The notes beneath the pieces were generated by a model. That model saw nothing but the letters and a program-made list of their open reading frames with translations. It ran no database searches and was not told where the DNA came from. A DNA stretch of 64,000 nt from Leucoraja erinacea (lineage: Eukaryota): assembly GCF_028641065.1 (NCBI RefSeq), contig NC_073377.1, forward strand, positions 151,714,001 to 151,778,000, given 5' to 3'. Made by a program: the position numbers and the translations under genes. Shown here one piece after another: positions 6,561 through 63,638 of this stretch (its first letter is position 1; the number at the start of each line of letters is the position of its first letter).

Positions 6561-7739
6561 TGACTTTATAACTCTCAAATCCTGGCAGTCCTTTAATTTG
6601 GGCTTATTTTACATCACTAATTGGTATTGCTGTCTGCCATTGTGTTCTGTGATTTCGGTTTCCAGACTTATTGCCCTGGAATTCTCTCCCTAAACTTCTC
6701 AAGCTCTCAACCAATCTACCCCTCTTGCCTGAAGTCATTAATAGAACAGAGTGAGCTTTTGTCTCCGGACTCATGAGCATCATATGTGGGTAGGTGTCAA
6801 ATTATGATTCATCATGCCCCATAAAAGCATTTGGAGTCATTTTACAACTTCAAAGATGAACATTAATGTACAGGCACTTTACAAGAGTTGTCTGAAGAAA
6901 GGTGCAGACCCAAAACACCACTTGTCCAATTTCTCCTGAGATGCCGCCTGACTTGTTGAGTTACTCCAGCATTTTGTGTTTATCTTTTAGTGTAAACCAC
7001 CGTCTGCAGTTCCTTTTTATTACAAGAACAGAAGTTGCATTTATTTATAAGCCTGATGAAGTTTATTATTATTGTCATGTGTACCAAGATACAATGAAAA
7101 GCTTTTGTTTGCGTGCTATTCAGTCAAAGAAAACACTATACATGATTACAATCAAGCCGTTTACAGTAAACAGATGAAAGGTACAACATTTAGTGCAAGA
7201 TAAAGTCCGATTAAAGAAAGTTCAAAGGTCTCCATTGAGGTAGAGAGTAGGTCAGCCCTGCAATCTAGCCGATGACATTTGGCAGCAGTAAGCCGTTGCT
7301 TGCATTGTCTGAATTTGAATCGAATATTACATGAGTAAATTGTTCCGGGCATCATGTAGGACAATTTGGATCATTTGCAATGCTTCAATTGTTATTTTCT
7401 CACTTGAAGCAAGTACAGAAAAAATACTTTTGATATCAAACACCACCATTGAAGATCAAAGTCTGATTTTGGTTCCAGCTGTGTGCCTTGGCCAGTATTT
7501 CAAAGAGCCAACCCCAATGCATTTTTATTCATTTTTCTGTTCCCTCATTGTTACACTTTAACCTTGAATTACACACAAGCCAATAGCAAACTAACAACAG
7601 GTGAGGCAGGGCTTTTATTCCATCATTCTGGAACAACATATTTCCAGTAGGAAGTATTGTAGATTATGCTAATTGGGAATTTTTGATTTTAAGTTGCACT
7701 GTAGTGTTTCCAGCATCTGAAACTGGATGACCATTTAAT

Positions 7740-8035
7740 ATAGTCACACAGCATGGAAACGGGCCCTTTGGCCCAATTTTCTCATGCTGACCAAGATGCC
7801 CCATCTGCAGTCCCACCTGCCCACATTTGGCCCATATCCCTCTAAATTGTTCTAATCCATGTACCTGTCCAAATATTTTTTAAATGCTGTTATAGTGTCC
7901 GCCTCAACTACCCCCTCTGGCAGCTTGTTCCATATACCCACCACCATCTGTGTGGAAAAAAGTTGCCTCTCAGGTTCCTATTAAATAGTTCACCTCTCAC
8001 CTTAAACCTGGTTCTTGATTCTCCTACTCTGGGTA
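7740..8035 (-). mobile_element. CR1 3' fragment
   Basis: RVGESRTRFKVRGELFNRNLRGNFF homology and a CR1-type 3'UTR. Confidence 0.65.
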
Positions 8036-8170
8036 AAGATTTTGAGGTATTGGGAAGTGAGATACAAACTATAGGATACTCACTCTCTGATGCCAGTTTG
8101 GTTGAAGGTACACAAAAATGCTGGAGAAACTCAGCGGGTGCAGCAGCATTTATGGAGCGAAGGAAATGGG

Positions 8171-8201
8171 TGACGTTTCGGGCCAAAACCCTTCTTCAGA
8201 C
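8171..8201 (-). ncRNA. Minimal type-I hammerhead ribozyme core in the Penelope terminal repeat
   Basis: Minus strand reads GT-CTGAAGA-A-GGGT tttg GCCC-GAAA-CG-TC-AC: CUGANGA and GAAA boxes, 4-bp stem II, GUC triplet. Confidence 0.7.
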
Positions 8202-8327
8202 TGATAGGGGGTGGTGGGAGAAGGAAGGAAAAAGGGGAGGAGGAGGAGGAGGAGGAGGAAGAGCCCGAGGGCGGGGGGATGGGAGGAGACAGCTGGAGGG
8301 TTAAGGAAGGGGAGGAGACAGCAAGGG

Positions 8328-10270
8328 TTAGAAAAATTGGGAGAATTCAATGTTCATGCCCGCCGGCCGCAGGCTACCCAGGCAGAATATGAGGTGCTGT
8401 TCCTCCAATTTCCGGTGTTGCTCACTCTGGCAATGGAGGAGACCCAGGACAGAGAGGTCGGATTGGGAATGGGAGGGGGAGTTGAAGTGCTGAGCCACCA
8501 GGAGTTCAGGTAGGTTCTTGCGGACTGAGCGGAGGGGTTCGGCGAAACGTTCGCCCAACCTCCGCTTAGTCTCACCGATGTAAATCAGCTGGCATCTAGA
8601 GCAGCGGATGCAGTAGATGACGTTGGAGGAGATACAGGTGAACCTTTGTCGCACCTGGAACGACTGCTTGGGTCCTTGAATGGAGTCGAGGGGGGAGGTA
8701 AAGGGACAGGTGTTGCATTTCTTGCGGTTGCAACGGAAAGTGCCTGGGGAGGGGGTGGTACAGGAGGGAAGGGAAGAATTGACAAGGGAGTTGCGGAGGG
8801 AGCGGTCTTTGTGGAAGGCAGACATGGGGGGAGATGGGAAGATGTGGCGAGTGGTGGGGTCACGTTGGAGGTGGCGCAAATGGCGGAGGATGATTTGTTG
8901 TATTTGCCGGCTGGTGGGGTGAAAGGTGAGGACTAGTTGCGAGTGCAGGGATGGGGGGAGAGAGAGCAGTGTTGCGGGGTATGGAAGAGACCCTGGTGCG
9001 AGCCTCATCTATGGTGGAGAGGGGAATCTCCGTTCCCTGAAGAGCGAGGACATTTCCGATGCCCTGGTGTGGAACGTCTCATCCTGGGAGCAGATGCAGC
9101 GTAGGCGGAGGAATTGGGAGTAGGGGATGGAGTCCTTACAGGGGGCAGGGTGGGAAGACGTGTAGTCCAGATAGCCATGTGAGTCAGTGGGTTTGTAGTG
9201 TATGTCGGTCAGAAGTCTATCCCCTGCGATGAAGATGGTGAGGTCAAGGAATGGTAGGAAAGTGTCGGAAATGGTCCAGGTGTATTTGAGTGCCGGATGG
9301 AAGTTGGTGGTGAAGTGGATGAAGTCGGTCAGTTGTGTGTGGGTGCAGGAGGTGGCCCCAAAGCAGTTGTCAATGTAACGGAGGTAGAGGTCGGGGATGG
9401 GGCCCTGGTACGTATTGAACAAGGATTGTTCGACGTACCCGACAAAGAGGCAGGCGTAGCTGGGGCCCATGCGTGTGCCCATAGCTACGCCTTGTGTTTG
9501 GAGGAAATGGGAGGAGTCAAACGTAAAGTTGTTGAGGGTGAGTACCAACTCCGCTAGGTGGAGGAGAGTGTCAGTGGCTGGGTATAGGTTGCTCCTCTGG
9601 TCGAGGAAGAACCGGAGGGCTTTGAGGCCATCCTGGTGGGGGATGGAGGTGTAGAGTGACTGGACGTCCATGGTGAAGATGAGGGGGTGAGGGCCTAGAG
9701 AGTGGAATGTGCGGAGGCGGCAGAGAGTGTCTGAGGTGTCTAGAACATAGGTGGGAAGGGATTTGACCAAGGGGGATAGTATGGAGTCAAGGTATGTGGA
9801 GATGAGTTCGGTGGGGCACGAATAAGCAGAGACATTGGGTCTGCCGGGAGAGCCGGGTTTGTGGATTTTGGGGAGAAGGTAAAACCGGGCCGTGCGGGGC
9901 TGGGGAACGATGAGGTTGGAAGCTTGGTCGGGCAGGGCGTGGGAGTTGATGAAGTCGGTGATGGTGCTAGATATGGTGGCCTGGTGCTCGTCAGTGGGGT
10001 CATGGTCCAGGGGTAAGTAGGAGGAGGTGTCCGAGAGTTTGCGTGTGGCCTCAGCTTTGTAGAGATCGACGCGCCAAACTACCACGGCACCTCCCTTGTC
10101 GGCTGGTTTGATAACCCAATCTGGGTTTTTGCAGAGTGATTCAATGGCAGTGCGTTCAGGGGGGAGAGATTGGAGTGAGACAGGGGAGTGGAGAAGTTGA
10201 GGCGGTTGACGCCGCGGCAGCAGTTCACGAGGGGGGTTCCACGAGGAGGGGGTGCGTTGGAGGTTTGGTT
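8328..10270 (-). pseudogene. Penelope RT-GIY-YIG ORF with a frameshift at ~9015 and YIDD->YIDN
   Basis: Track ORFs 9009-10400 and 8328-9008 join into one protein if one base is restored in TTCCCCTC[-]TCCACC (FPSSTIDEA). Confidence 0.85.
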
Positions 10271-11011
10271 TGCGTTCAACCAGTTTGGTTGAGTTCAGTT
10301 TGGTTTCTGGTGCATTGTCAGTGTTGATCTCCAGAATACTTATGTTGACCACAGCAATGCCATTGAATGTCAGACTATATATTACTGTATAGAAAGCCAA
10401 TAGAAAGTTTTTGCTGTTTTGATATTTGAGTGCATGTGGTCTTTATTGCAGAATGCAAAGCTTAGTATGGAACTGATTCCTACTATGAATACCGAGACAA
10501 ATAATGCAGTGTAAAGGTGTTCAAATCCAATCATGAGATTGAATTTCTGAGAAATTAATTTAAAGAAAAATGTGCAAAAAGTTGAGTACAGAGAAAATGA
10601 AAATGAAAATATTGTCTTTAAAAACATTTTTCTGTAATGTCTTTTTGGGTACAAAATGTTCCTGTATATAATTCCTGTCCCACAACAATTTGGTTCATTT
10701 TCAACTGCTGTTTGAAAGCCTCTCAATTATGTTAAGCCAAAATGTATCAGGGCTGTTAGGTATGGCAACTAAACATATCGGGCAACTGGCACATTTTGTT
10801 TACTCTACATAGGTACTGGGAACGATCAACTCTAATTAGGGAGAATTAAACCATCTGCTCTTGTCATTCAATGACATTGCAGTTGCTGAGCTTCCAACGT
10901 CACCATTTAGTGTGTCACTAAAGCTCAACTGGTTCAGCACAAAAAATAACACTTACTGCACGGCCACGCCCTTAAAGCCTTTCTACCACCGGCAAGTTGG
11001 ACAAAAAGGAC

Positions 11012-11797
11012 AAGGGACAGAGCACATTTATTGTCACATACATCAATTGGTGCAGTGAAATTTGAGTTACCATGCAGCACACAAATAAGGTAAACACACT
11101 TTAGAATTTAACATAAAACATAAAAAAACATCCCCCCACAGCGGAATCAACGTTTCCCACTGTTAGGGAAGGCACCAAAGTCCAGTCCTCTTCCTCAGAT
11201 CACTAGTGGTTGGGGCCTATTGAGGCCTCCGCTAGGGGCCCGATGTTTCAAGCCCTCGAACACTCTCAGCAGCCCGGAGCCTCCGAATCGGCTGCTTCCT
11301 ACCGGTGACCACAGCTTCTGAAGTCCACAGGCCGAGCTGGGCGGAGATTCAACGCTGGCGACCTTGGCGAGAGATCCCAGGGCTCTGCGATGTTAAAGTC
11401 AGCGTCAGCTGGAAGCTCCGCAGACCACAGCTCCACGGTGTCAAAGTTGGCAGTCCCAGAACTCCGGAGCTCCAACACGGCGACCCCGGTAAGGCATCGC
11501 TCGCTCCGCGATGGAATCCAGTGCTGCGCCGCCGCTGCTGAGGCTCTGGCCGGTCTCCGCAGTAAAGGCCATACCAATCCAGGTGGCAGGCCGCGAGGAG
11601 GGGGGGAAGATGCGGCTCGGAGAATAGTCGCATTCTCGACCAGGAAGTGACCAAGAAAACAGTTTCCCACTCCCCCACATAAAAAAAGACTAAAAGATCT
11701 CCAGAAACAAACTTTAAAGCAGACTAAAAATAACAAAAAGAGAATGAAAGGACAGACAGTTGCAGGCTAGACAGCCACACTCGATGGTGCCACCACT
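11012..11797 (-). mobile_element. Non-coding GC-rich SINE-like retroelement
   Basis: Shares the core ggcgaccc(c)ggtaaggcatcgctcgctccg and the AT-rich LINE-like tail (acatttattgtcacata..cagtgaaatttgagttacc) with 18418-19215 and 1325-1631; no credible ORF. Confidence 0.7.
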
Positions 11798-11947
11798 TGA
11801 GCAGATCGTTGTAAGTCAAAAGTGCAATAAAATGCACTGTATTTGGTACAATACCTGTTGTTTCAACAACTTTTTACACCTTCCTTGACGAAGCAGCCTG
11901 TTGGAGTGGCACTCCTACCCCTGGCCTGAACACACATGTTCCCCAAC

Positions 11948-12753: not shown

Positions 12754-12910
12754 GAAGATAGACACAAAAAGCTGGACTAATTCAGCAGGACAGGTAGCAT
12801 CTCTGGGAAGAAGGAATGGATGACGTTTCTTGTTGAGACCCTTCTTCAGACTGGTTAGGGATAAGGGAAACATGAGATATAGACGGTGATATGGAAAGAT
12901 AAAGATCACT
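12754..12910 (-). mobile_element. Penelope terminal-repeat fragment with degenerate hammerhead core (12821-12851)
   Basis: gaagatagacacaaaaagctgga...tgacgtttcttgttgagacccttcttcagac. Confidence 0.7.
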
Positions 12911-12976: not shown

Positions 12977-14592
12977 CAGTGGCTTGCAAAAGTATTCATA
13001 CCCCTTGAACATTTCCACATTTTGTCACGTTACAACCACAAACGTAAATGTATTTTATTGAGATTTTATGTGATAGACAAACACAAAGTGGCGCATAATT
13101 GTGAAGTGGAAGGAAAATGATACATGGTTTTCAAATTTTTTTACAAATAAAAAACTGAAAAGTGTGGCGTACCAAAGTATTTAGCCCCCTTTACTCTGAT
13201 ACCCCTAAATAAAATCCAGTGCAACCAATTGCCTTCAGAAGTCACCTAATTAGTAAATAGAGTCCACTTGTGTGTAATCTAATCTCAGTATAAATACAGC
13301 TGTTCGGTGAAGGCCTCAGAGGTTTGTTAGAGAACATTAGTGAACAAACAGCATCATGAAGCCCAAGGAACACACCAGACAGGTCAGGGATAAAGTTGTG
13401 GAGAAGTTTAAAGCAGGGTTAGGTTATAAAAAAATAACCCAAGCTTTGAACATCTCACGGAGCACTGTTCAATCCATCATCCGAAAATGGAAAGAGTATG
13501 GCACAACTGCAAACCTACCAAGACATGGCCGCCCACCTAAACTGACAGGCCGGGCAAGGAGAGCATTGATCAGAGAAGCAGCCAAGAGGCCCATGGTAAC
13601 TCTGGAGGAGCTGCAGAGATCCACAGCTCAGGTGGGAGGATCTGTCCACAGGACAACTATTAGTCGTGCACTCCACAAATCGGGCCTTTATGGAAGAGTG
13701 GCAAGAAGAAAGCCATTGTTGAAAAAAAGCCATAAGAAGTCCCGTTTGCAGTTTGCCACAAGCCATGTGGGGGACACAGCAAACATGTGGAGGAAGGTGC
13801 TCTGGTCGGATGAGTACAAAATTGAAGTTTTTGGCCTAAATGCAAAATGCTATGTGTGGTGGAAAACTAACACTGCACATCACCCTGAACACACCATCCC
13901 CACTGTGAAACATGGTGGTGGCAGCATCATGCTGTGGGGATGCTTTTCTTCAGCAGGGACAGAGAAGCTGGTCAGAGTTGATGGGAAGATGGATGGAGTC
14001 AAATACAGGGCAATCTTGGAAGAAAACTTGTTAGAGTCTGCAAAAGACTTAAGACTGGGGCAGAGGTTCACCTTCCAGCAGGACAACGACCCTAAACATA
14101 CAGCCAGAGCTACGATGGAATGGTTTAGATCAAAACATATTCATGTGTTATAATGGCCCAGTCAAAGTCCAGACCTAAATCCAATTGAGAATCTCTGGCA
14201 AGACTTGAAAATTGCTGTTCACAGACGCTCTCCATCCAATCTGACTGAGCTTGAGCTATTTTGCAAAGAAGAATGGGCAAAAATTTCAGTCTCTAGATGT
14301 GCAAAGCTGGTAGAGACATACCCCAAAAGACTTGCAGCTGTAATTGCAGCGAAAGATGGTTCTACAAAGTATTGACTCGGGGGGGCTGAATACTTTTGCA
14401 CGCCACACTTTTCAGTTTTTTATTTGTAAAAAAATTTGAAAACCATGTATAATTTTCCTTCCACTTCACAATCATGCACCGCTTTGTGTTGGTCTATCAC
14501 ATAAAATCCCAATAAAATACATTTACGTTTGTGGTTGTAATGTGCAAAATGTGGAAAAGTTCAAGGGGTATGAAAACTTTTGCAAGCCACTG
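12977..14592 (+). mobile_element. Full-length Tc1 (DD34E) transposon, Passport-like, IR/DR ends
   Basis: TA|CAGTGGCTTGCAAAAGT...ACTTTTGCAAGCCACTG|TA; ~210-bp imperfect TIRs with an inner direct repeat (~13170-13189 and ~14381-14400); 1616 bp. Confidence 0.96.
13356..14375 (+). pseudogene. Tc1 transposase (339 codons) with one in-frame stop at 14151-14153
   Basis: Paired-like [34 protein letters not shown]. 34 residues between the second D and E; the frame continues to GSTKY-TGA at 14373-14375. Confidence 0.93.
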
Positions 14593-17494
14593 TATGTTGA
14601 CAGCACCAAATGCCATTGAGTGTCAGGAGCAAATGATTCGATTCTTACTGGGATGGCCAGTGCCAGACTCCTATATGGAATGAATGTTACTTGGCATTCA
14701 TTGACCTTTTATGAATGTTGTACAATCTTGCTGCAGGTATGGGCTGTTTAATTAGCTAAGAATTATGAATGGAATTGAATATTATGCAATAAGCAAGCCT
14801 TCACACTTCTGAGCTTGTGATTGCCATAAGATCATTGTTGCAGCAGCTAAAAATGGTTGGGCCTATATGGAGCCTGAGGCCCTAACATTCTATGGAGGAC
14901 CTACAGCAGTGATGTCAATAATTTCTACCATCGGCAAGGTGTAAGTCAAAAATGCAAAAAAAATGGTGCAGTACCTGCTGTAACCTATTACACCATCTTT
15001 GATGAAGCAGCCTGTTTGAGTGGCACTCCAACCCCCAGCCTGAACACATGTTCCCCCACCACGCCTACACCGTGGCAACGATATGTACAATACACCCAGG
15101 ATCTTTGACAACACAACTGTTTTTATGTCTTTACCACATGCATGCTTTCCCTTTGATGCCCCTTGACTTCTGATTGTGTCACTTGAAATCTGAGACTTTT
15201 GCGACCAAAGATTAGAGGCATTTTGGAGTACTACCATTTGCAAGTTTCCCTTCAATTTATGCGCACCATGCTACCATGAAATATAAATTGGTGTTGCTTT
15301 GTTCTCGTTGGCTCCATATATACCCTGGAACTTCATGCCCATCATGACAGTATATTTTTAGTGAAAGGGTTGCAGTGGGTTATTGTTAGGACTGGGTTGA
15401 CTGTTTAGTCGGCTTGACAGTAATGCTTGGCTTGACAGTAATGTCCGCTTTCTGTGAATTAAAAAAGATGGCCGACAACATCCATGACTTTTTAGTGAAT
15501 TATAAACACATGAGTGATACTTATATAAATGCAACATTCAATGCTTCTGATGAAAGATAATGCTAATTGAAATTAGAACGTGTTCAGTTTATCATAAATT
15601 TTGTAAAACTTGAAATATATTTTGTTCTCCCAACAGTCTGCCTACTCATTAGTGCACAGCCAGTGAAGTTGTTGGAAATGAACGAGGTTTCTGCTAGGTT
15701 TGGTAAAGTGTAAATAAATTTACACGGAAATATAGGAAAAATAATTTGTCACAGTTAGGGCAATTTGTGTCTGTAGTATTGCAATAATTTAAACAGGAGG
15801 GTGAAATTGTCAGTTAAATTGCATGGATGTTGCCAATTAATTGCCATAATAATGACAACAAATATAGATATGGCATTGGAATGTTCTGAGGTGTTGGATC
15901 TGTGGCCTCCTCTCTCACCAGTGCTGGATGTGAATGTTGGCTTTTGCTGATGCTCTGTACCCAGGAATTGGGTAGTAAGGTCCAAATGAGAAATAAAACT
16001 TGGTTGGTTGTTTATCAGTGCCCTGTCTGGAATATCCCTGAAAGACTGATGGTGGCAAAGCTGGAAATGTGGGGAGAATGTTTTGCTTTTTGTCAAATCT
16101 GTGCAGGTTTAAGGTTCTAATTGTCTTTGACATTTAAAGAGAGTATTAAAAAAGATGTATTAAAAACAAAGTTATAAAAAATGTTTTGGAAAAACTAAAA
16201 ATATGGCAACACAAATCATTAAAAACATTAGGTAGAAAATGACTTGATTAATCTTCCCTATTTGATAAGCTGAAGATCTCAAGTCAGATGAGAGGCAACC
16301 TTAGTATCCGTTGTAATGCTGGCCGAACCCATCATAGAGTCAAAGGTTCAAAAGTCAGTTTATTGTCACATGTACCAATTAAGGTACAGTGAAACTGGAA
16401 TTATCAGCTGACTCGAGTCAAGCAGCACAGAAACTGGTGCATCAGCTTAACGTGCATTCTGAACAAGATGCCCATCTCTCGTCCCATCTGCTCCTAATTG
16501 GACCATATCCTTCTAAACCCTTACTATTTACGTACCTGTCCAAATGTCCCCTAAATGTTGTTGTATATGCCTAAACTATTTCATCTGGCAACTTGTCCCA
16601 TATAGGGTCAATGCCCCATGTTACCCTTCATATTCATATTAAATCTTTCCTCTCTCGCTTTAAACCTGTGTTGTCTAGTTCCAGATTCTCCAAACCTGTG
16701 TAAAAAAAAAAAAAAAACTCTCTGTGCCTTCACCATCTGTGCCTTCTTGATTTTATACACCCTTATGATATCACCCTTCAGTCTCCTGCGTTCCAAAGAA
16801 TAAAGTCCTAGCCTGCCCAGCCTCCTCCTGTAGCCCTGGCCCTTGAGTCACGGTACATACTCGTAAATCTTTTCTGAATTCTTTCCAGCTTATTGATATA
16901 TTTCCTATAGCAGGGTGACTAAACCCAAACACAACACTCCCAAGTGCGGCCTCATCAACGTCTGATACAACTGCAACTGTGCCACTTTCAGGGAACAATA
17001 CAATTGTACTTTTTGGTCCTTCTGTTCTACAGTACTCCCCAGGGCCCTACCGTTCACTCTGAAAATCCTACTCTGGTTTGACTTCCCAAAATGTAACTTA
17101 CCCAAATTAAATTCTATTGACATTTCTTGGCCTACTCCCCCAGCTGATCAACATTTTGCTTTAATTCTTGATAATCGTCACTGTCTCAATGCCAACTACT
17201 TTTAGTGTCATCTGCAAACTTATGAACTTTGTACTATAATCCAAACATTATATAGATGACAACCAGCAAAATAGCCCAACACTGATCCCTGTGGCACGCC
17301 ACCAATCATGCACTTCCAATCCAAAAATAAACAACCTTTCACCATCACTCTTGGCTTCCTACCATCAAGCTAATTATATATTCAATAAGTTAGCTCTCCC
17401 TGGACATCATGCAATCTAACCGCCTGGAGTAACCTACCATATGGAACATATCAAAAGCCTTGCTGATGTATGTATGGACTACATACATGGACTG

Positions 17495-17974
17495 GCAGAC
17501 TGATTCCTGGGATGTCAGGACTGTCTTATGAAGAAAGACTGGATAGACTTGGTTTATACTCTCTAGAGTTTAGGCGATTGAGAGGGGATCTTATAGAAAC
17601 TTACAAAATTCTTAAGGGGTTGGACAGGCTAGATGCAGGAAGATTGTTTCCGATGTTGGGGAAGTCCAGGACAAGGGCTCACAGCTTAAGGATAAGGGGG
17701 AAATCCTTTAAAACCGAGATGAGGAGAACTTTTTTCACACAGAGAGTGGTGAATCTCTGGAACTCTCTGCCACAGAGGGTAGTTGAGGCCAGTTCATTGG
17801 CTATATTTAAGAGGGAGTTAGATGTGGCCCTTGTGGCCAAGGGGATCAGAGGGTATGGAGAGAAGGCAGGTCCGGGATACTGAGTTGGATGATCAGCCAT
17901 GATCATATTGAATGGCGGTGCAGGCTCGAAGGGCCGAATGGCCTACTCCTGCACCTATTTTCTATGTTTCTATG
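17495..17974 (+). mobile_element. Young CR1 3' fragment
   Basis: RLIPGMSGLSYEERLDRLGLYSLEFRRLRGDLIETYK, hairpin and TTTCTATG tail; nearly identical to 53535-54005. Confidence 0.92.
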
Positions 17975-18417
17975 GTTCTTTTGTGCCACAAGATGCATTT
18001 GAAAGTGTACTAACGATGATGCATATATCTCAGCCAGATCTCCTGTACTTTCTTCTTTAGCTTCCCACAGTATTGTAGGATATGACTGATCAAGTCCAGG
18101 TTATTTATCTCCCCATACATGCCTTATGACACCCAGTCTTTCTCCCGGATCGAAAACAGGAGAAATATTCGCTGAGAAGTTTGCCCATTTGGATCGATTA
18201 TATTATCTTTCTGCTAGCTGGTTAGCACGTAACTAAAGTTTTTCACTGTACCTTGGTACGTGTGACAATAAAGTAAACTGAACTAAACTGAAATCTGTGG
18301 CTCCAAACATAAGTTCCTGCATTGGTCTTTGAGGAAGCCTATTTTCTCCATAGTTACCATTTTCCCTTTAATGTACATAAAACTTTGGATTTTACTTTTA
18401 TTTTCTGCCTCTCATAG

Positions 18418-19215
18418 TAAGTAAGTACGTTTTATTTATATAGCACATTTTAAGTCAACTCGCATTGACACCAAAGTGCTTTACATAAATTAAATAATAA
18501 GTTCCATTACAAAGCATAGAAAAAGGTTAAAAAAAAAAAGAATAAAATGGACACAACACATAATAGAGTTCAACACAAAAGTCCCCCCCACAGCAGAATC
18601 AAAACTTTCCACTGTGGGGAAAGGCACCAGAAAGTTAAGTCCTCTTCCTCTGTGAAACACCCGAGGTCGGGGCCCATTTGTGGCCGTGCAGCCAGTCCGA
18701 TGATTTTCAGGGCCCTCTTGCCGTGAAGATGGAACTTCGGCGTCAGGTGAAACATTCCTCAGCGGCTTGGAAAAGTCTGGAGCGGCTGCCTCCTCCCTGG
18801 AGACCGGGGCACTCGTAGTCCTCAGGCCGCGCCGGCTGGAGCTCCGACCCCGGTGAACTCGATCCCTGGCTCTGCGGCGCTCCAAATCCAGTGCCGCCCG
18901 CGGCCGGACGCCCGCAGCCCCTGCTCCGCGATGTTGGGATCGATGGCCACAACGCTCCGGAGCCTACCGCACGGCGACCCGGCAAGGCATCGCTCGCTCC
19001 GTGTTGGCATCCCAGCGCTGCACCATCGCCGCCGAAGCTCTAGTCCCGGCCGGCCCCGACAGGAAACGCCGCTCCATTCTCGATGGTAGGCCGTGAGGAC
19101 GGGGCGAAGAAGCTGCTTGGAGAGATGCTGCCTCTCCGACCAGGTAGGTGACTAAGAAATGAAGTTTCTCCCTTCCCCACCCCCACCCCCCACATAGAAG
19201 ACCTCCACTAACATT
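18418..19215 (-). mobile_element. Non-coding GC-rich SINE-like retroelement
   Basis: (GTAA)n tail at 18416-18427; core homologous to 11012-11797. Confidence 0.7.
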
Positions 19216-19227
19216 TATACCTAAGAA

Positions 19228-21990: not shown

Positions 21991-22314
21991 TGTTGAACCA
22001 GAAATTAAGTTATTTGCAAGGACACAAAATGTAGTCTGGGAAATTTCTGAGCCATCATCAAGAGTATTTCACTCGCACCATTGCTGACCAGTTGAATTAA
22101 TCTTGAAGGATGAAGCTAGCAGACGGTGACTGTGAAGGAAACCATCATGAGGAACTGCAACTCCACCAATTCCTTGCATCAGCTTGCAAGGCAGCTGATA
22201 GATAGGAATCCTAAATATTCTCTTGGTCTCTATTATCAATAGAGATAAGGGCAGCAGAGAGAGGAGAAAAATACTGATTGTTAATTTACTGACAAATCAT
22301 ACTGGTTCAGAAAT

Positions 22315-52400: not shown

Positions 52401-52709
52401 AAATTCAAAAAGATTCTTGCAGTACTGGAAATATTTTGTTTCGAATGATCAAAGTAATGTAATTTATAGGAAAACATTTTCTAATCTTTTTTGTGGAGTA
52501 TAATTGTCCCTTGATTGTAGGAAATGTGGACATTCAATTGGAATTTTAAAAATAGTTAGAGTTCCATTTACTATGTAATTTTCCCAAAGTATAATCTCTT
52601 CATATCAACTTTTAATGAATGAATAATGCCAACACAATATTTTTCATGTAGCTCATGATATTTTGGTAAGATAATATTGAATAATTAATTTGTACTATTG
52701 TTCTTGCAG

Positions 52710-52780
52710 GATTTGGAGATAGTTTATTCGTATCTTCATGGAATGGAAGCACTGTCAAACTTGAGAGAACATCAATTGAG
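52710..52780 (+). CDS. RAPGEF2: RAPGEF2 (PDZ-GEF1) coding exon, 71 bp, phase 0->2 (probably exon 2): DLEIVYSYLHGMEALSNLREHQL(R)
   Basis: Acceptor ttcttgcag|GAT and donor TTGAG|gtaag. The translation matches the N-terminal cNMP-binding-like region of vertebrate RAPGEF2 as recalled, and it splices in frame to the next two exons. Missed by the ORF track because it is short. Confidence 0.95.
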
Positions 52781-52869
52781 GTAAGAATGTCATTTAAAGA
52801 TGATGTTTACTTTTTTTATCCACTGCAAGACTTTTTACCCATTTTACTGCAGTTCCTTCATCAATAAAG

Positions 52870-54005
52870 GAAAGAAACTTAAAGCACACGGCATTGGGGG
52901 TTCAGTATTGATGTGGATAGAGAACTGGCTGGCAAACAGGAAGCAAAGAGGAGTAAACGGGTCCTTTTCACAATGGCAGGCAGTGACTAGTGGGGTACCG
53001 CAAGGCTCAGTGCTGGGACCCCAGCTATTTACAATATATATATTAATGATCTGGATGAGGGAATTGAAGGCAATATCTCCAAGTTTGTGGATGACACTAA
53101 GCTTGGGGGCAGTGTTAGCTGTGAGGAGGATGCTAGGAGACTGCAAGGTGACTTGGATAGGCTGTGTGAGTGGGAAAATGTTTGGCAGATGCAGTATAAT
53201 TTGGATAAATGTGAGGTTATCCATTTTGGTGGCAAAAACAGGAAAGCAGACTATTATCTAAATGGTGGCCGACTAGGAAAAGGGGGAGATGCAGCGAGAC
53301 CTGGGTGTCATGGTACACCAGTCATTGAAAGTAGGCATGCAGGTGCAGCAGGCGGTGAAGAAAGCGAATGGTATGTTAGCTTTCATAGCAAAAGGATTTG
53401 AGTATAGCAGGGAGGTTCTACTTCAGTTGTACAGGGTCTTGGTGAGACCACACCTGGAGTATTGCATACAGTTTTGGACTCCAAATCTGAGGAAGGACAT
53501 TATTGCCATAGAGGGAGTGCAGAGAAGGTTCACCAGACTGATTCCTGGGATGTCAGGACTGTCTTATGAAGAAAGACTGGATAGACTTGGTTTATACTCT
53601 CTAGAATTTAGGAGATTGAGAGGGGATCTTATAGAAACTTACAAAATTCTTGGACAGGCTAGATGCAGGCAGATTGCTCCCGATGTTGGGGAAGTCCAGG
53701 ACAAGGGGTCACAGCGTAAGGATAAGGGGGAAATCCTTTAAAACCGAGATGAGAAAAACTTTTTTCATACAGAGAGTGGTGAATCTCTGGAACTCTCTGC
53801 CACAGAGGGTAGTTGAGGCCAGTTCATTGGCTATATTTAAGAGGGAGTTAGATGTGGCCCTTGTGGCTAAGGGGATCAGAGGGTATGGAGAGAAGGCAGG
53901 TACGGGATACTGAGTTGGATGATCAGCCATGATCATATTGAATGGCGGTGCAGGCTCGAAGGGCCGAATGGCCTACTCCTGCACCTAATTTCTATGTTTC
54001 TATGT
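52870..54005 (+). mobile_element. Young CR1 3' fragment (1.1 kb), ~90 bp downstream of the exon donor at 52780
   Basis: VTSGVPQGSVLGPQLF, KFVDDTK, RPHLEYC; tail TTTCTATGTTTCTATG; TSD AATAAAG at 52863-69 and 54006-12. Confidence 0.92.
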
Positions 54006-55410: not shown

Positions 55411-57532
55411 CTGTAGACGTATGGGATTTTCAGCATTTGCAGGTCACATTTTGTTATTAGCAAAACATCATGAAAAGAAAAAAATGGTGCTTCTGCAAAA
55501 CTCAATTTCCGCCTTTCCATGGTTCATAATCATTAGTTTCTTGATATATGGATTTTTTAAGCAATTTGGTGCAGTTCTTTTGATACAAATATCATTTCCC
55601 TTGTGTTTGTGTGTGTGTGTGTGTGTGCAGGGGCAAAAATAGCTTCAAATCTGGGGGACACACACAATTTCTTGGTGGCCCCACATGCTTGCACACGTTC
55701 GCACACACAAGGCTTTGGGTGGGCCCTGTGGACGGTAACATTGGGAGCTGACCTGCTTGGTGACCGACACCAAACTCCAGCAACAGCAGCTTCGTCTGCC
55801 CTGAATCGTGGGGCTTGAATCGGCCCGTTCGACGGCTTGGCTTAAAATCGTCCGTGGGATCTTCCATCGCCTGGCAGGGGCTTCAACACCGGGAGCCTCG
55901 ATTGCCTCGACACAGCAGTTTGACTGCCTGACCGAGGGTCGATGGAAGATCCTGAGGCCCACGCTGGTTGATGAAAGGCCCCACGAACGGGCCGATTCAC
56001 CCCTTAGAAAGCGTCTGATACCCACTTGAATCTTTCAAATGCTACAATGTGATAAATAACACTTAAACAAATAAAACTGAATCAAATAAAGGCAAACAGA
56101 AGAACCAACCTTGGAGGGGAGAGAGAGAGAAAGATGGGGAAAAAATACCAAATAAAGTGAGTGACCGTGAATGAGGGACTTACCTGCAAGCTAGCCTGTC
56201 AGCCCTTAATGACCTAACTCGTTTAAATCCAATGCCCGTTTAAATCTTTCCAATCCACCAATACATCCAATTAGCTCAAATGGTAATTGTACCCACAGAG
56301 AAATTCTTAAAACAGTCTGATGTGGGTACAATTGTGGGGCATCGTATTATCACATTGTGTTAATACGATGTTAAAAGTGACATTTAACAAACGCTTAACA
56401 GTGACCGAATCAAGTGATAAACGACTCCAATCGCTCGAGTATTGTATGTCTGTCGAATGTATGAGCATGGGGGGGGGGGGGTTTATCCCCCACCTCTCAA
56501 AACATGGGGGTTTTGTTCTCTCAATGTGTGGATTGTTTTCTTGCTGACATTGATATTGTCTCTCGGCTCAAGTCATCACTTTTAAAACATCGGGTGGGGA
56601 GACACAATTTCCTGGACTTTACTCACACTCGCCTTTACTCACACTCACAGGGACTATCACCTCTGCTCACTAGGGTTCTCACACACACACACACTCCCTC
56701 TACTTGCTTTAAAAACGCTATGGACACTGACAAGGCCCCGGCCCATTCAACTGCACCACTGATCAACATGATCTTAAATGATCATGCTCTGGCATCAATT
56801 TCCTCTTCTGTCCAGTTTCCCTTAACCACAAATTCCCCTATTTAAAAAAACAAATAATCTACTTGTTCTTTAAATTCATCCAATGACCTAGCCCCTGCAT
56901 TCCTCTGGAGTATTCTGGAGATATGCCACTCTGTGTAAGAATATGTTAAGTTTCAAATGAATGTCCCCTATCTAGTAACGATGTTGCTTTGTTCAATTTG
57001 ATACCGCCAGTGGAAATATCTTGACATCTACCCTTAGGATTCAATATGTTTCAATGGGAAGCACCCTCACTCTTCTGAATTCCAAAAAATATGCCCCTTC
57101 ATCTCAGAAGTTAACCAAGTGAATCTCTTTATGAATACCTCCAATACATTTTTTTTACATTTTTATATGGGGAAATCAAATCAGTGCACGTAACTCCATA
57201 CGTGACTGCACTAATACCTTTAACAATATTTCTGCATGCTTTTATCCTTATCTGCCTAATCTTTAACGAATTGTGAACATGGAACACTTAGATCCTCTTA
57301 ACTTTGCGTATGTGCAATATTTTCCCATTTAGATAATCTTTAGATTTCTCTTCCCTGGTACATGACCTCATGTTTTCCTATGTCAAATTCTCTTCAAATC
57401 CTTCCTTTTGCCTTTATGGCAAGAGCCATTTTCATTTAGTTGGAGAAAAATTTGTAATTAATGTTTTGACATGGTATCATAGTAGGTTTGTTCTATGTTA
57501 TTAAATTTGAATTGCATGTAATTATTCCCATG

Positions 57533-58706
57533 GTAGAGACAAAATGCTGGAGTAACTCAGTGGGACAGGCAGTATCTCTGGAGAGAAGGAATGGCCAACG
57601 TTTCGGGTCGAGACCCTTCTTCAGACTGATGTCAGGGGAGTGGGCGGGACAGAGATAGAATGTAGTTGTAGACAGTAAGTAGTGGGAGAACTGGGAAGTG
57701 GGAGGGGATGGAAAGAGAGGGAAAGCAAGGACTGTTTGAAGTTAGAGAAGTCAATGTTCATACTGCTGGGGTGCAAGCTAGCCAAGCAAAATATGAGGTG
57801 ATGTTTCTCCAACTTGCACTGGGCCTCACTCTGACAATGGAGGAGGCCCGGGATAGAAGGGTCAGATTGGGAATGGGAGGGGAAGTTAAAGTGCTGAGTA
57901 ACCAGGAGACCAGGTAACAATCGTTGAGCCTGCATTTGGTCTTGTCAATGTACAAGAGTTGACACCTGGAACAGGGGATATAGTAGATGAGGTTGGAAGA
58001 GGTGCAAGTGAACCCCTGCCTCACCTGAAAAGACAGTTGGGGTCCTTGCATGGAGTAGAGGGGGGGGAGGTAAAGAGACAGGTGTTGCATCTCCTGCAGT
58101 TGCAGGGAAAAGTACCTGGGGAGGGGGTGGTTTGGGTGGGAAGGGACCAGTTAACTAGGGAGTTGCGGAGGGAACGGTCTCTGCTGAAAGCAGAAAGGGG
58201 TGGAGATGGGAAGATGTGGCCAGTAGTAGGATCCTGTTGGAGGTGGCGAAAATGTTGGAGGATTATATGCTGTATGTGGCGGCTGATGGGGTGGAAGGTG
58301 GGGACAAGGGGGACTTTGACCTTGTTACGAATGGGGGAAGGGCCAGCAAGAGCGGAGCTGCGGGATATCGAGGAGACCTTAGTGAGAGCCTCATCTATAT
58401 TGGAAGAGGGGAACCTCCATTTCCTAAAGAATGAGAACATCTCCGATGCCCTCGTGTGGAAAACCTCATCCTGGTGCAGAAGCGTTGTAGACGAGGAATT
58501 GGAAGCTGGGGATAGAGTCCTTACAGGAAGCAGGGTGGGAAGAAGTGTAGTCTTATTAACTATGGGAGTCAGTGGGTTTGTAGTAGATGTCAGTCAATAG
58601 TCCGTCTCCTGTGATGGAGATGGTGAGATCTAGAAACGGTTGGGAGATGTCGGAGACGGTCCAAGTGAATATGAGTGCAGGATGGAAATTGGTGGTGAAG
58701 CTGAGA
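57533..58706 (-). mobile_element. 5'-truncated Penelope-like element with intact hammerhead core at 57596-57626
   Basis: KVPLVPTFHP, CNCRRCNTC, NLIYYIPCSRCQLLYI; TSD ATTCCCATG at 57524-32 and 58707-15. Confidence 0.88.
57596..57626 (-). ncRNA. Minimal hammerhead ribozyme core (antisense to RAPGEF2)
   Basis: Minus strand CTGAAGA-A-GGGT ctcg ACCC-GAAA-CG-TT (GUU triplet). Confidence 0.6.
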
Positions 58707-59751
58707 ATTCCCATGACAGGGTTTATTTAGAAGATCATGCAGGGCGTTTCTTGGTGTTTTCTTTCATTTAGCATTCTCTTTAGTGGAAATATAACTTTTT
58801 ACAGGTCTTGTAAATTGACTAATGAATGATCTGCAATTGTTGTTAAGTTTAAAACTTTACAATAGGGAGACATAAGAGACTGCAGAGGCGGTAATCTAGA
58901 GCAAAAACAATGCTGCTGAAGGAACATCCGTGGGTCAGGCAACATATGTGGAGGCAAAGGATTACTGGGTCCAGGTGGACATCCTGCATCAGGAGTTTGG
59001 TGTAGCTTGGGAGTAGGCTAGTATAACAGTATAAGGGAGGACTCCAAACAGAAGTTGGTGGTCTGAATATTTTGAGAATGTGGCATCATTCTATTGGTAT
59101 CTAAAGATGGGAAGGTAAATTATGACTTTTTTTGAATCTTTTGATGGGATAAAATGAGGTTTTATCCAGCTGGGCAAATGGTCTAATATGTTTTGTTTCT
59201 GGGATGTTTATTTCTTAGCTTAATTTTATGAAGTTGTCTGCTGTTATTTATTATGTTTCCTTGTCTTCAGTGTTTTCATATTTTCTGCTTGAGTATTTCA
59301 ATATTTTTGCATATGTTCTTTTAATTTATATTGACTCACTTGAATGATATTTTGTATTTTTTAATGTATTGTTCAATTTCTGTCTGTTACACAATCTAAC
59401 TATCAAGCATGTTTGATCTCTCAGCACACTTTCTGGAGTAGTTGTTCTTTCTGAGTTTTGTTTGTTCATTAATATAGATCGAGCATTATCTGTCTTAAAT
59501 AAATTAAACAAATAATCTTATTTAATCTTTGTTCATTTTTCCAGAAAGGGCATAAATCACAAATACAAAATAGTGATTAGTCTTTTGTAAATGTGATTGA
59601 TCTAAGTATTTGTACCTTTGTTTATTTGGGCCTCCAACTTTTACATTTTTATGTTTGGTAATTATTGCATGAGAAATTAATAAAAAATTAAAAAATCACT
59701 ATCAGTATTTGGCAAAGAAAAGGGACCAATGTGTTTATTTTTCTGTTACAG

Positions 59752-59808
59752 ATTAATGTGTGAAACTGTCAGATATGAACGGCATGAGGCAAATGAGGTC
59801 CTATACTA
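59752..59808 (+). CDS. RAPGEF2: RAPGEF2 coding exon, 57 bp, phase 2->2: (R)LMCETVRYERHEANEVLY(Y)
   Basis: Acceptor tttttctgttacag|ATT and donor TACTA|gtaagt. LMCETVRYERHEANEVLYY fits RAPGEF2 rather than the paralog RAPGEF6 (recalled sequence). Confidence 0.95.
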
Positions 59809-60000
59809 GTAAGTGAATGCATTTGTTTTTTCAAATATTAACATTAGATTGGTTGTCTGAGTAATGGAGAAAAATCCTCATGGTGCAGCAATATTCCATA
59901 AATAGAGCACAGATCTTCAATGTGATTGATGAAGCTCAGTTCTATCAGTTGAAATTGGTTTTTTTGGTCAAGAAAATTGTAATAGCAATGATAAAATAAA

Positions 60001-60657
60001 TAAAGAAAGTGAATGGCATGTTGGCCTTTATAACAAGAGGAATCGAATATAGGAGCAAAGAGGTCCTTCTGCAGTTGTACCGAGCCCTAGTGAGACCACA
60101 CCTGGAGTATTGTGTGCAGTTTTGGTCCCCTAATTTGAGGAAGGACATTCTTGCTATTGAGGAAGTGCAGCGTAGGTTTACAAGGTTAATTCCCGGGATG
60201 GCGGGACTGTCATATGCTGAAAGAATGGAGCAGCTGGGCTAGTACACTGGAGTTTGAAAGGATGAGAGGGGATCTTATTGAAACATAAGATTGTTAAGGG
60301 TTTGGACACGCTAGAGGCAGGAAACATGTTCCCGATGTTGGGGGAGTCCAGAACCAAGGGCCACAGTTTAAGAATAAGGAGTAACCCATTTAGAACGGAG
60401 ACAAGGAAACACTTTTTCTCACAGAGAGTGGTGAGTCTGTGGAATTCTCTGCCTCAGAGGGCAGGTTCTCTGGAGGCAGGTTCTCTGGATGCTTTCAAGA
60501 GAGAGCTAGATAGGGCTCTTAAAAATAGCGGAGTCAGGAGATATGGGGAGAGGGCAGGAACGGGGTACTGATTGGGGAATGATCAGCCATGATCACATTG
60601 AATGACGGCGCTGGCTCGAAGGGCCTACTCCTGCACCTATTGTCTATTGTCTATTGA
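60001..60657 (+). mobile_element. CR1 3' fragment ~190 bp downstream of the exon donor at 59808
   Basis: [34 protein letters not shown]; (CTATTGT)n tail. Confidence 0.9.
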
Positions 60658-60862
60658 GGTATTTTGTGCCATAAACAAAATCACCTATCTTCCCATCCAA
60701 AGTGTAGCGAGTGCCAAATAATCTAAATCTGAAAACAGATGTAGCATGTTTAACCCCAATTTATCCCTAATTATCTGTAGTTCATCTTTGCAGAGATTTT
60801 ATAATATACACGTTACTAAATTTATTTTAAAATAAATCTAGACATATTCAGGAAAGTTAACA

Positions 60863-61146
60863 CAGGTCCACCGTTGATTTTCTGGCGGCCGAGATACGGT
60901 CCTGCAAAGTCTGCCTTGGATGTCGGGCTATGGGAATGGATCTGCCGGCTCTGGTTGGGCCGGATTTTTATAGCCCGGGCTGCAGGGGGCAAATTTGACC
61001 TGCAGATCGGCCGCAGGTCCCGATGAGGTCTAGATCGGCTGCCTCACCCGGCCTAGGCGCCACATTTTTGGAGGGTGTGCTCGTAATTTTGTCTGGATTA
61101 AAGGAGGTTTCAGACCACCAGTTGCCAGAAAATCATGGTGGACCTG
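60863..61146. mobile_element. Tc1/pogo (Tigger-like) MITE
   Basis: CAGGTCCACCGTTGATTTTCTGGC...GCCAGAAAATCATGGTGGACCTG|TA; the left TA is mutated to CA. Confidence 0.75.
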
Positions 61147-62831
61147 TATAAAGTCAGGGAATTGGGGTTAAAGAGGAAAGTTGTTGGAGTCGGGTTGCAG
61201 TTGCAAGATGATCTTGATTTTTAATGCAAAGATTTTGTTCTTATGCAATTCTTAAATGTTATTTTTATTGTATGGTAATTACAAAAGATAGTCAAATTCA
61301 AGTCTGTAAGTGGAATTTGTTGAGTACGGTTATTTCTCTGATGTATGTTCAGTGGCCTAGATAGTGTGGCTCTCTAGTGCCATCATAGGTAGGTCAGTGT
61401 AATTGCAGCAATTTCATGAAAAAAATCATATGCTGGATGTGTTCCGAGGAATGAGATCAGTGATGGAATCAATGCTAAAAAGGCCCATTATAAAACTATA
61501 TTATATAAATGTGTTAATGACAGTGGCATAGTGTTGTGAATCTGGTACAAAACCTTGCCTTACCAACCGTGCTGCAGACCTGATGTGAACTCTAGCCTTT
61601 CCCCATCTGCTGCATGCAGCTGTGCCAAATCGCTGGTGCAGATTTTTGCCCTCTGCTGGTGCTCTTGCTGTAATGAAGAGCCCACTGCTTGGTATGGAGA
61701 AGATTGCTTGTGAGTGAGGGTGTTGGGTGGGTCAAGACAAGCTGAGCAGCAGCTTAGTGCAGCAAATACAGGCCAGGGGGTGCACTGCTGCCAAAGTGAG
61801 ACCTGTTGGAGGTGATAGAAGCTGCTTTTTTCTCCCTATTTGTTTGGTTACAAAGCTTTCCCTAGGCTTGAGTTTTCTCTGTGCTAACAAACATCCGTAA
61901 GAGTGGTTGCTGGGCATTGAACTTGTATTCATTGAGTGTAGCCAAACAAAGAGAAGTGGACATAGTAACTATACATAGTTACTATACACAGTATCTACAG
62001 GTATATTAATCTTCTAACGCATTGAACAGGAGGTACTGAGTGAAACTGCAGGATCTGGCTAGTCTGTCAAGGAGGGGCTGCTGGTTCCCAGTGATGTCCG
62101 GAATTAGTGTTGGTCAGGGTGCATTACTGAGCCCCACATCTGTAGCTCATCTATATCTCTCTCCGCCCAATACCAGTCCTCACAGGAAACATCTTGACAT
62201 TGAACATTGAACAGGGATTTGTGCCAAGGTCACAGCACAGCAACACCTATTGGCAGGAGTTCTTGTTAGGTTTACAGCAAAACCTGAGACTGGCTTGTTA
62301 AAAGTATAACTGGTGGGGAATGATGTGGAATGGCGGGGTATGACAGAATGCAAAGTATTTAACATTGATAAATATGATTCTTGCTATATTTATTGGCAAG
62401 CTGGGAATGTGTTTCATCAATTGCAAATTTGAAAGCAAAATATTGCAGATAATGTAAATCTGGTTAAAAAATGAAAATGCTGGAAATACTTGGTAAGTTA
62501 CGTATCATCTGTGAAAATTCCACAGATGCTTGGTCTACTGAATGTTTCCAACATTTTTTGTTTTTATAATGTTTTTATTTGTTTTAATTATGTTGTAAAT
62601 TGTTTATTTCATTAAAAAAATACTAATCATACATTATGCTAATTGATTAAAACACCAAATGCATTTAAAATAATTAGGCACGCTGTGTGATAATAATATA
62701 CAAAACCTTATGTAAATCCGTGTTAATAAACCTACAGAACCAATAAGTTTATATGTCGGTGCAGTTAATTTTGTTAGAGCATATTCCCATTGTGTGTTTA
62801 TGTGTTATTTTTTTTCTTCTCTCTATCCTAG

Positions 62832-62915
62832 CCCTGATGATATTGGAACCTGTTGGTACATACTCTTGTCTGGTTCCGTATTTATCAAAGAGTCTATGTT
62901 TCTTCCCAGAAGCAG
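62832..62915 (+). CDS. RAPGEF2: RAPGEF2 coding exon, 84 bp, phase 2->2: (Y)PDDIGTCWYILLSGSVFIKESMFLPRS(S)
   Basis: Long polypyrimidine tract ending ctatcctag|CCC and donor AGCAG|gtatg; in frame with the previous exon. Confidence 0.95.
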
Positions 62916-63433
62916 GTATGTTTTCAATAAACAAACTTGGATATGCATGTTTTATATAGAGCATTAGTTGTGTGAAATGTAATGTTATAATTGTTATGTA
63001 TGTTGTGACAATTAATCCTAACATCTGGGTTTTGTTGTGTACTTGCTCATTATGACAATGTGAGTGCCTACAGTAGGAATAATTTACAGTAGCCATTACC
63101 CTACAAACAAATATTTGGGATTGTTAGCCACTTAGCATCAACTTTCTCACAAGGACTATATTTAATTTTAGCACTTTATGTAAAACATAATTTCGGTAGA
63201 TTATTGGGCGGAGAATTTGACATACAGATTGCATATATGTAAGATATTATTTAAATTAATACACCCTGGCAAAAATAGTCTCAGAGTTGATAATGAACCC
63301 TTGGAAGAAAGTTTTAAAAGAATTATTGTTCATTCACTCTCAAAAGACCAACAGGGAGACAGAAGCACATATATACACTAGAAGTTTAAAACTATGTGAA
63401 TCAGGATTCTGCCACATCTACGCTATGAAAGGT

Positions 63434-63638
63434 GTAGGAAGGAACTGCAGGTGCTGGTTTAAACCGAAGATAGACACAAAAAGCTGGAGTAACTCAGCGG
63501 GTTAGGCAGCATATCTGGAGAAAAGGAGTAGGTGGCGTTTCGGGTCGAGACCCTTCTTCAGACCTGAAGAATTAGTGACACTGAAGAAGGGTCTCGACCC
63601 GAAACGTCACCTATTCCTTTTCTCCAGCTTTTTGCGTC
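63434..63638. mobile_element. Fold-back Penelope-derived element with hammerhead cores on both strands
   Basis: 47-bp inverted arms 63515-63561 / 63581-63627 (2 mismatches); TSD CTAC(G/T)CTATGAAAGGT at 63418-33 and 63639-54. Confidence 0.88.
63581..63610 (+). ncRNA. Minimal hammerhead ribozyme core, sense to the RAPGEF2 pre-mRNA
   Basis: CTGAAGA-A-GGGT ctcg ACCC-GAAA-CG-TC: intact boxes, perfect stem II, GUC triplet. Confidence 0.7.

Follow-up and report, generated by a model that had tools for sequence, protein, structure and literature searches.

The window analyzed here, a stretch of 64,000 nucleotides from the genome of Leucoraja erinacea, lies within RAPGEF2, which tblastn with shark RAPGEF2 proteins places on the plus strand. 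Exon 1 maps by tblastn 29 kb upstream of the window (+), and coding exons 2, 3 and 4 fall at 52707-52790 (+; a tblastn range with unrefined splice edges), 59750-59806 (+) and 62833-62919 (+; both likewise tblastn ranges). Consequently, all 14 copies of a short hammerhead ribozyme motif in the window are intronic for the long isoform. This bears out the original prediction, which had placed about a dozen minimal hammerheads in RAPGEF2 introns; every one of the 14 copies is present, eight on the plus strand, sense to RAPGEF2, and six on the minus strand.

Motif coordinates are given from C3 through the cleavage nucleotide H17. Among the sense copies, the decayed motif at 6892-6919 carries G12>A and has lost its cleavage triplet, the copy at 25560-25587 carries G12>A, the copy at 31987-32014 carries G12>A and 16.2 G>A, and the decayed copy at 25951-25978 combines C3>U, G12>A and 16.2 G>A. 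G5>A and G12>A occur together at 49329-49356 (+), downstream of an endonuclease tail fragment near 49030, and a partial motif at ~46262-46288 (+), contained in an inverted terminal-repeat pair at 46182-46353, has lost its CUGA box. The two remaining sense copies had been put forward as having intact boxes. In the first, at 22373-22400 (predicted as 22371), the boxes and stem II are indeed intact, but 15.2 is changed from C to U and the second helix-I pair is broken; its inverted partner occupies 22317-22364. In the second, at 63581-63608, the core stands as claimed, but the copy starts at C3 and is missing the 5' strand of helix I. It forms part of a head-to-head inverted repeat pair at 63441-63627, whose antisense motif (63534-63561) carries U16.1>C. 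Core, stem II and helix I come together in none of the eight sense copies. The antisense copy at 8172-8199 is the sole one in the window to unite boxes, stem II, ACGU palindrome and a 2-bp helix I. Among the other antisense copies, stem II is broken at 12822-12849 and both palindrome and stem II at 36177-36204, with boxes intact in each; the latter follows an endonuclease tail fragment near 36500. The second helix-I pair is broken at 57597-57624, and both boxes are broken in the decayed copy at 50261-50288. No tandem same-strand array was found in the window.

The motif has an extra nucleotide after A9, a G10.1-C11.1 pair, and palindromic 15.2-16.2 positions with no loop III, in agreement with the minimal type-I hammerhead anatomy that had been proposed. 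A strict descriptor (both boxes, a 4-bp stem II closed by G-C, pairable 15.2/16.2, and NUH) is passed by four of the 14 window copies (22373+, 63581+, 8199- and 57624-) and by 74 matches in the 1.264 Mb examined, with none in any of 30 dinucleotide-shuffled versions of the window. No hammerhead family appears among the 18 Rfam matches of the window at E<=10. Rfam models apparently miss a loop-less helix III, and this blank is therefore not evidence against a hammerhead.

A Penelope-like retrotransposon, which encodes a reverse transcriptase (RT) plus a GIY-YIG endonuclease, carries these minimal type-I hammerheads in its terminal repeats. A 5'-truncated, frameshifted copy at 8107-10163 (-) contains an RT with a DKG motif, a linker and GIY-YIG, followed by the terminal repeat with the hammerhead. 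Its Pfam matches (RVT_1, E 1.4e-4; GIY-YIG, E 0.011) both fall short of the cut-off, and 8334-10163 matches protein P0121 at 49.8% identity (tblastn, E 5e-180). The RT and C-terminal GIY-YIG of this frameshifted copy both align to one protein, P0121/P0122, and relatives of the element are single proteins with RVT_1 and GIY-YIG. Between RT and endonuclease (window 8331-9008), the linker has the form C-X4-C-X2-C, its three cysteines invariant in alignment A1. A second remnant at 57532-58717 (-) extends from the RT thumb to the endonuclease, and the terminal repeat at its end holds the 57597-57624 motif. Across 1.264 Mb, the repeat lies within 600 nt downstream, on the same strand, of 39 of 43 endonuclease C-terminal matches, which upholds the predicted Penelope origin.

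The family is unusual only in abundance. One 30-mer of the motif repeat has 11,482 exact copies genome-wide, and its reversed control has none. In the 1.864 Mb examined there are 827 repeat matches, and extrapolation from the 74 strict matches in 1.264 Mb puts the genome's content on the order of 100,000 intact minimal hammerheads, many in sense introns. Subfamilies were compared by the majority letters of six clusters comprising 303 near-complete copies. In the five main clusters, the only differences within the motif concern the loop, H17 (C/U) and a single side of two pairs; both one-sided changes stay paired (U-A to U-G), and core box positions are identical. The sixth cluster (10 copies) is more decayed and also varies at L4 and 11.3. 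Helix-pair changes between subfamilies in this genome are one-sided only, and double-sided stem II changes number two to three per pair among about 400 copies from the same genome. The loop variants noted originally (ctcg, tttg, cctg and tcca) do occur, but they represent subfamily differences plus CpG decay rather than covariation. Helix I has two pairs in most copies, the third being A-C in 195 of about 270.

Double-sided helix changes are found in distant relatives, for which a single-protein query returned four loci (L151-L154), and they occur in both of those with an intact motif. In L153, whose endonuclease is 54% identical, the motif lies ~80 nt behind the endonuclease, and stem II and helix I have changed on both sides with pairing compensated. 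L154 (33% endonuclease identity) has a variant motif 1.4 kb downstream, the copy in L151 is decayed, and the L152 sequence ends too early to reach the motif site.

The closest published counterparts are the minimal hammerheads of metazoan Penelope-like elements (Cervera and de la Pena 2014, PMC4209133). They share the type-I layout with CUGANGA and GAAA boxes, the extra nucleotide after A9, G10.1-C11.1, the palindromic 15.2-16.2 without loop III, and the position behind RT and GIY-YIG, mostly as single dispersed copies. The skate motif has a shorter stem II (4 bp) and helix I (about 2 bp) than the Schistosoma families (7-8 and 4-5 bp, respectively). A 2-bp helix I has been described for D. virilis elements (PMC4209133). 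The 11,482 copies of one exact 30-mer alone exceed the totals for Xenopus (~9,000) and coelacanth (~4,000) (PMC4209133). Two supplementary files of that study hold no shark or skate entry, and a search by title and abstract start, with subscription papers, Repbase and Dfam outside its scope, returned no published report of such motifs in sharks or skates. In domain features, the skate family resembles Neptune/Nematis-type EN+ elements (Craig et al., 10.1101/2021.04.23.441226), sharing the DKG RT, CX2-5CxxC linker, C-terminal GIY-YIG, 5' truncation, and inverted copies beside the terminal repeat. The Poseidon element of Anolis (PAc, PMC11167929) is likewise an EN+ element whose terminal repeat contains a hammerhead; however, it belongs to the Penelope/Poseidon clade, is described without a zinc-finger linker, and has been tested biochemically, whereas the skate family is known from sequence. 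Animal non-LTR retrozymes, reported in one chondrichthyan genome, also consist of hammerhead repeats derived from Penelope terminal repeats (10.64898/2026.07.22.740005). Retrozymes form tandem, non-coding arrays, whereas the copies here occur dispersed, singly or as inverted pairs, and some are joined to the element's open reading frame. At spacings of up to 300 nt, 606 repeat matches include 126 divergent inverted pairs against 37 same-strand neighbors, which speaks against a retrozyme identity.

The G12>A change (GAAA>AAAA) runs at CpG-decay rates. Genome-wide single mutants, counted by subtraction and set against the 11,482 intact copies, comprise 3,230 with G12>A, 3,313 with 16.2 G>A, 2,618 with C11.1>T and 1,591 with a loop G>A. 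The rates bear out CpG decay as the origin of the GAAA>AAAA change, one of two explanations offered originally. G12>A is, however, roughly double the neutral loop change, a point against simple decay that CpG context may account for. Core conservation was examined in copies anchored on the endonuclease end (42 matches, of which 38 were used and four, with <70% identity downstream, were dropped). The core is no better kept than the rest of the repeat, with mismatches at 22/380 core positions (5.8%) versus 73/1368 elsewhere (5.3%; p=0.70); the excess conservation looked for as a check is not seen. An apparent core conservation (3.3% versus 6.0%, and 4.0% versus 6.5% divergence) is an artefact of how the copies were picked, namely with a local profile derived from copies having an exact core, and it disappears with endonuclease anchoring.

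Taken together, the window most probably holds the hammerheads of an abundant Penelope-like element, inserted in both orientations in RAPGEF2 introns as likely inert relics undergoing CpG decay. In a working element, the motif's role would be to process RNA of the element itself, with helix III arising where two copies pair at the ACGU palindrome; judging from published studies of other Penelope elements, the element's protein likely assists folding. Insertion is mostly 5'-truncated, often with an added inverted copy, so that the terminal repeat is usually what remains. Copies in the pre-mRNA are single, far apart, mutated or predicted to fold on an inverted twin, making cleavage unlikely.

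Structure prediction points the same way. Arms 63515-63561 and 63581-63627 are predicted to pair as a ~47-bp hairpin (-112.5 kcal/mol, z -13.1), with none of 200 shuffles as stable. The 22373 motif is predicted to fold back on its inverted partner (22290-22470, -61 kcal/mol), and the 46190-46360 inverted pair forms a predicted hairpin of -91 kcal/mol. The two named candidates, 63581 and 22373, would accordingly be locked in hairpins with their inverted twins. With helix I missing or broken in these two copies, the proposed self-cleavage of RAPGEF2 pre-mRNA by them finds no backing in these models. None of the RNA datasets listed contains window 59500-63440. In raw poly(A) reads of a relative (X22, ~6% of the run), the repeat is covered on both strands at a depth of 130-830, largely from other copies; the library is fragmented and RAPGEF2 exons have a depth <1, which makes the absence of an end pile-up at either cleavage site uninformative. 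A possible 3' splice site (pyrimidine tract, CAG) stands just before the motif; no recurrent spliced upstream sequence precedes it in 230 copies, and no spliced joint at this CAG is among the joints listed from X22 reads.

It is improbable, though less so than the other alternatives, that some intact sense copies occasionally cut host pre-mRNA, as dimers or aided in trans by protein, slowly and harmlessly because exons are tethered during splicing. Such cutting would predict the absence of strand bias described below, and 38 of 154 sense copies in independent introns are fully formed. Cleavage by the Anolis hammerhead required added protein (PMC11167929), and slow hammerhead cleavage in an intron is reported to leave splicing intact, in work by others cited in PMC2995048; for this reason, absence of selection is not proof of no cleavage. 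Against this reading stand the 2-bp helix I of most copies, the lack of any fully formed sense copy in the window, and a predicted ACGU duplex worth just -1.7 kcal/mol. None of six isolated window copies gave a hammerhead fold. Unconstrained cofolding of a dimer gave other structures, which says little about the dimer fold itself. Schistosoma minimal hammerheads showed no cleavage as monomers and low cleavage as dimers (PMC4209133). Against the relic reading, five fully formed sense copies lie elsewhere in RAPGEF2, downstream of the window, in repeats that start near window-relative 91200, 93266, 118651, 172328 and 178332; the nearest two are 2.1 kb apart.

Harmful cutting of RAPGEF2 pre-mRNA, with sense copies selected to lose G12, was the other explanation originally offered for GAAA>AAAA, and it is very unlikely. 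In its favor, G12>A occurs in 5/7 sense versus 0/5 antisense window copies in which that site reads CG or CA (p=0.028), and across the whole of RAPGEF2 in 17/31 versus 5/23 (p=0.024, post-hoc and nominal). However, the window is the discovery set for this asymmetry, and the rest of RAPGEF2 gives 12/24 versus 5/18 (p=0.21). Intact boxes behave similarly (8/26 sense versus 15/23 antisense across RAPGEF2 including the window, p=0.023); without the window, the trend is the same and not significant (6/19 versus 11/17, p=0.093). Eight genes were tested in all, the others being two LamG-domain genes and five spectrin-repeat and BEACH genes, oriented by Pfam exon matches; the asymmetry was not replicated in these seven. 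In the independent introns of the eight genes, sense copies are not depleted (374 versus 364 antisense), and G12>A is strand-neutral (58/212 versus 59/213; pooled odds ratio 0.98, 0.64-1.50). Intact boxes (86/171 versus 87/171), a comparison of the kind proposed as a check, and fully formed copies (38/154 versus 41/154) are equally free of bias. A neutral downstream CpG reached p=0.045 as one of eight pooled CpG tests, indicating that such p values arise here by chance. Neither mark of a host-exapted intronic ribozyme, a core conserved above its surroundings or a sense-strand bias, was found, and a host-gene role for the motifs is not supported. That the hammerhead match is a coincidental part of the repeat is scarcely credible: the Rfam blank, the lack of double-sided stem II covariation within the genome and the unexceptional core of dead copies would fit, whereas the agreement of every core position with the published minimal hammerhead, alongside its other features (PMC4209133), and the compensated motif behind a distant relative's endonuclease would not.

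With this family, a class reported in 2014 is also found in a cartilaginous-fish genome; the family's copy number, far above published vertebrate totals, is of modest value. The clean sense/antisense null indicates that hundreds of intronic minimal hammerheads are tolerated. It is a long shot that the Penelope protein, for example in the germline, could trans-activate intact intronic hammerheads and nick thousands of host pre-mRNAs, including that of RAPGEF2; with exons tethered, most such cuts would do no harm, and the missing strand bias would then be accounted for. If true, protein-triggered cleavage of host introns would be a new retrotransposon action on host RNA.

All 14 named copies of the hammerhead motif predicted to recur across the window were found, 8 on the + strand and 6 on the − strand. 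The motif comprises CUGAAGA, an additional A, a GGGU/ACCC stem II with a 4-nt loop, GAAA, CG and UH, in that order. A strict descriptor (the CUGANGA and GAAA boxes, a 4-bp stem II closed by G-C, pairable 15.2/16.2 and NUH) is passed by four window copies, 22373+, 63581+, 8199− and 57624−, and finds 0 matches in 30 dinucleotide shuffles of the window. Rfam at E<=10 returns no hammerhead family among 18 window matches. The 30-mer at 63581 has 11,482 exact copies in the 2.19-Gb genome, and its reversed control has 0.

The motif shares with the minimal type-I hammerheads (min-HHRs) described in the accessible portion of PMC4209133 an extra nucleotide after A9, G10.1-C11.1 and a palindromic 15.2-16.2. 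Across the five main clusters of the terminal repeat that carries it, the motif differs only in the loop, at H17 or by a pair-keeping U-G; a sixth, decayed cluster (10 copies) has further differences at L4 and 11.3. Stem II displays no real covariation among copies within the L. erinacea genome, where helix I is 2 bp in most copies. Of four loci from distant relatives, L153 places the motif about 80 nt past the endonuclease and shows double-sided changes in both stem II and helix I. L154 carries a longer form of the motif, the copy in L151 is decayed, and L152 ends too early. A pyrimidine tract and CAG, resembling a 3' splice site, directly precede the motif (8200-8300 − and 57625-57700 −), and many repeat insertions start within a few bases of them. 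In D. virilis, the element contains an intron whose end lies at helix I (PMC4209133).

The proposed Penelope derivation is borne out by a 5'-truncated, frameshifted element (8107-10163, −) with an RT, a C-X4-C-X2-C linker and a GIY-YIG endonuclease. Its two Pfam matches fall below cut-off, but single proteins combining RT and GIY-YIG align with both parts (E 5e-180). The motif lies 130 nt behind the endonuclease end of this element, and across 1.264 Mb the repeat occurs within 600 nt after 39 of 43 endonuclease ends. Over the same span, the endonuclease is still upstream in only 47 of 327 repeat copies with a CUGA box, so most copies are truncated ends. Divergent inverted pairs are frequent (126 among 606 repeat matches). 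Truncation, inverted copies and linker are as in the Neptune/Nematis-type elements described in the available part of 10.1101/2021.04.23.441226. The RT (9012-10442, −) is 53-59% identical to environmental proteins and, among long relatives, 53% identical to sea-anemone (Actinostola) proteins, the length range of this search leaving out shorter fish proteins.

Other repeats share the window. A Tc1/mariner-type transposase ORF (13344-14150, +; Pfam HTH_Tnp_Tc3_2, E 2e-25) is flanked by 169-nt inverted repeats that are 93% complementary (13021-14549). A second, LINE-type retroelement has a 447-aa open frame (46856-48196, −; RVT_1, E 3e-31) and related fragments (2563-3207, 44247-44966). A further abundant LINE, probably CR1-like, is represented by many truncated 3' ends in both orientations at 17470-17980, 34670-35250, 36490-37135, 40835-41450, 52800-54000 and 60000-60650. 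The stretches 11300-11770, 18490-19300 and 27590-28090 belong to a dispersed, GC-rich repeat, both strands of which contain long but spurious open frames.

Shark RAPGEF2 proteins, found using an exon of the window as query, align to + strand exons at 93-100% identity: exon 1 lies 29 kb upstream of the window, further exons at ~52707, 59750 and 62833, and the final match at window-relative 246,079 (all +). The predicted intronic location holds for every motif copy, each within intron 1, 2 or 4 of the long isoform.

Selection against cleavage had been offered as one reading of GAAA->AAAA (G12>A) in sense (RAPGEF2 + strand) copies, and within the window the bias is visible (5/7 sense vs 0/5 antisense, p=0.028). 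It does not carry over to the rest of RAPGEF2 plus seven further genes whose strand was assigned from Pfam exon matches (1.4 Mb; 374 sense and 364 antisense copies without the window), where G12>A, after exclusion of copies with any other dinucleotide at this CpG, affects 58/212 sense vs 59/213 antisense copies (odds ratio 0.98, 0.64-1.50). In this set, intact boxes (86/171 vs 87/171) and fully formed motifs, in which core, stem II and helix I are all present (38/154 vs 41/154), are likewise free of strand bias. RAPGEF2 with the window retains 17/31 sense vs 5/23 antisense (p=0.024), which counts against a no-selection reading; without the window it gives 12/24 vs 5/18 (p=0.21). The other reading, CpG decay of CGAAA, is upheld: all four motif CpGs decay at 15-23% per side (606 repeat matches) vs 4-6% for non-CpG core guanines. 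Genome-wide counts of single mutants are 3,230 (G12>A), 3,313 (16.2 G>A), 2,618 (C11.1>T) and 1,591 (loop G>A). G12 decay is at the upper end of the four CpGs and twice the loop value, an excess that sequence context may explain. Extra core conservation, also considered, disappears once copies are anchored on the endonuclease (22/380 vs 73/1368, p=0.70).

Self-cleavage of RAPGEF2 pre-mRNA by the 63581 and 22373 copies, raised in the original note as something they could do, appears unlikely: helix I is defective in both, and both are predicted to fold onto inverted partners. The 63581 copy starts at C3, leaving helix I without its 5' strand, and is predicted to form a duplex of about 47 bp with the antisense copy next to it (-112.5 kcal/mol, z -13.1); the 22373 copy has a broken helix I and a predicted fold-back. 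The remaining sense window copies comprise five with G12>A and one without a CUGA box, and none of the eight is fully formed. Elsewhere, RAPGEF2 has five fully formed sense copies, out of 24 covered when those of the window are counted in; the nearest two are 2.1 kb apart, and two of the five have inverted partners. The min-HHR monomers of PMC4209133 remained uncleaved and the dimers showed weak cleavage, and in PMC11167929 the Anolis element ribozyme required protein for cleavage and no RNA-seq ends were seen at its cleavage site. RNA reads from a relative display no end pile-up at cleavage sites, a result given no weight because the library is fragmented and the reads originate from many copies.

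We infer that the intronic motif copies are inert. Host intron RNA might now and then be cut without harm, because slow intronic hammerhead cleavage is reported to leave splicing intact (PMC2995048, in a passage citing other work). By analogy with the literature, the element's own RNA would be cleaved as a dimer or with protein help.

The min-HHR class has been known since 2014 (reviewed in PMC6765202), and related tandem retrozymes are described in one chondrichthyan genome in the available part of 10.64898/2026.07.22.740005; the literature searches listed no paper on the present Penelope-like family in sharks or skates. At 3.4% non-CpG divergence, one subfamily, marked by a UUCG loop, is younger than the rest. 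At the 63441-63627 and 57532-57630 insertions, contigs of a relative (about 97% identical; sequencing run X19) break off after reaching into the edges, which suggests that both insertions are shared and predate the split. Repeat density is about one per 2.3 kb in the window and the further stretches examined. The unusual aspect of the present family is its abundance: 74 strict-descriptor matches in 1.264 Mb and 827 repeat matches in 1.864 Mb extrapolate to roughly 10^5 intact copies of the motif and 10^6 repeat fragments genome-wide.
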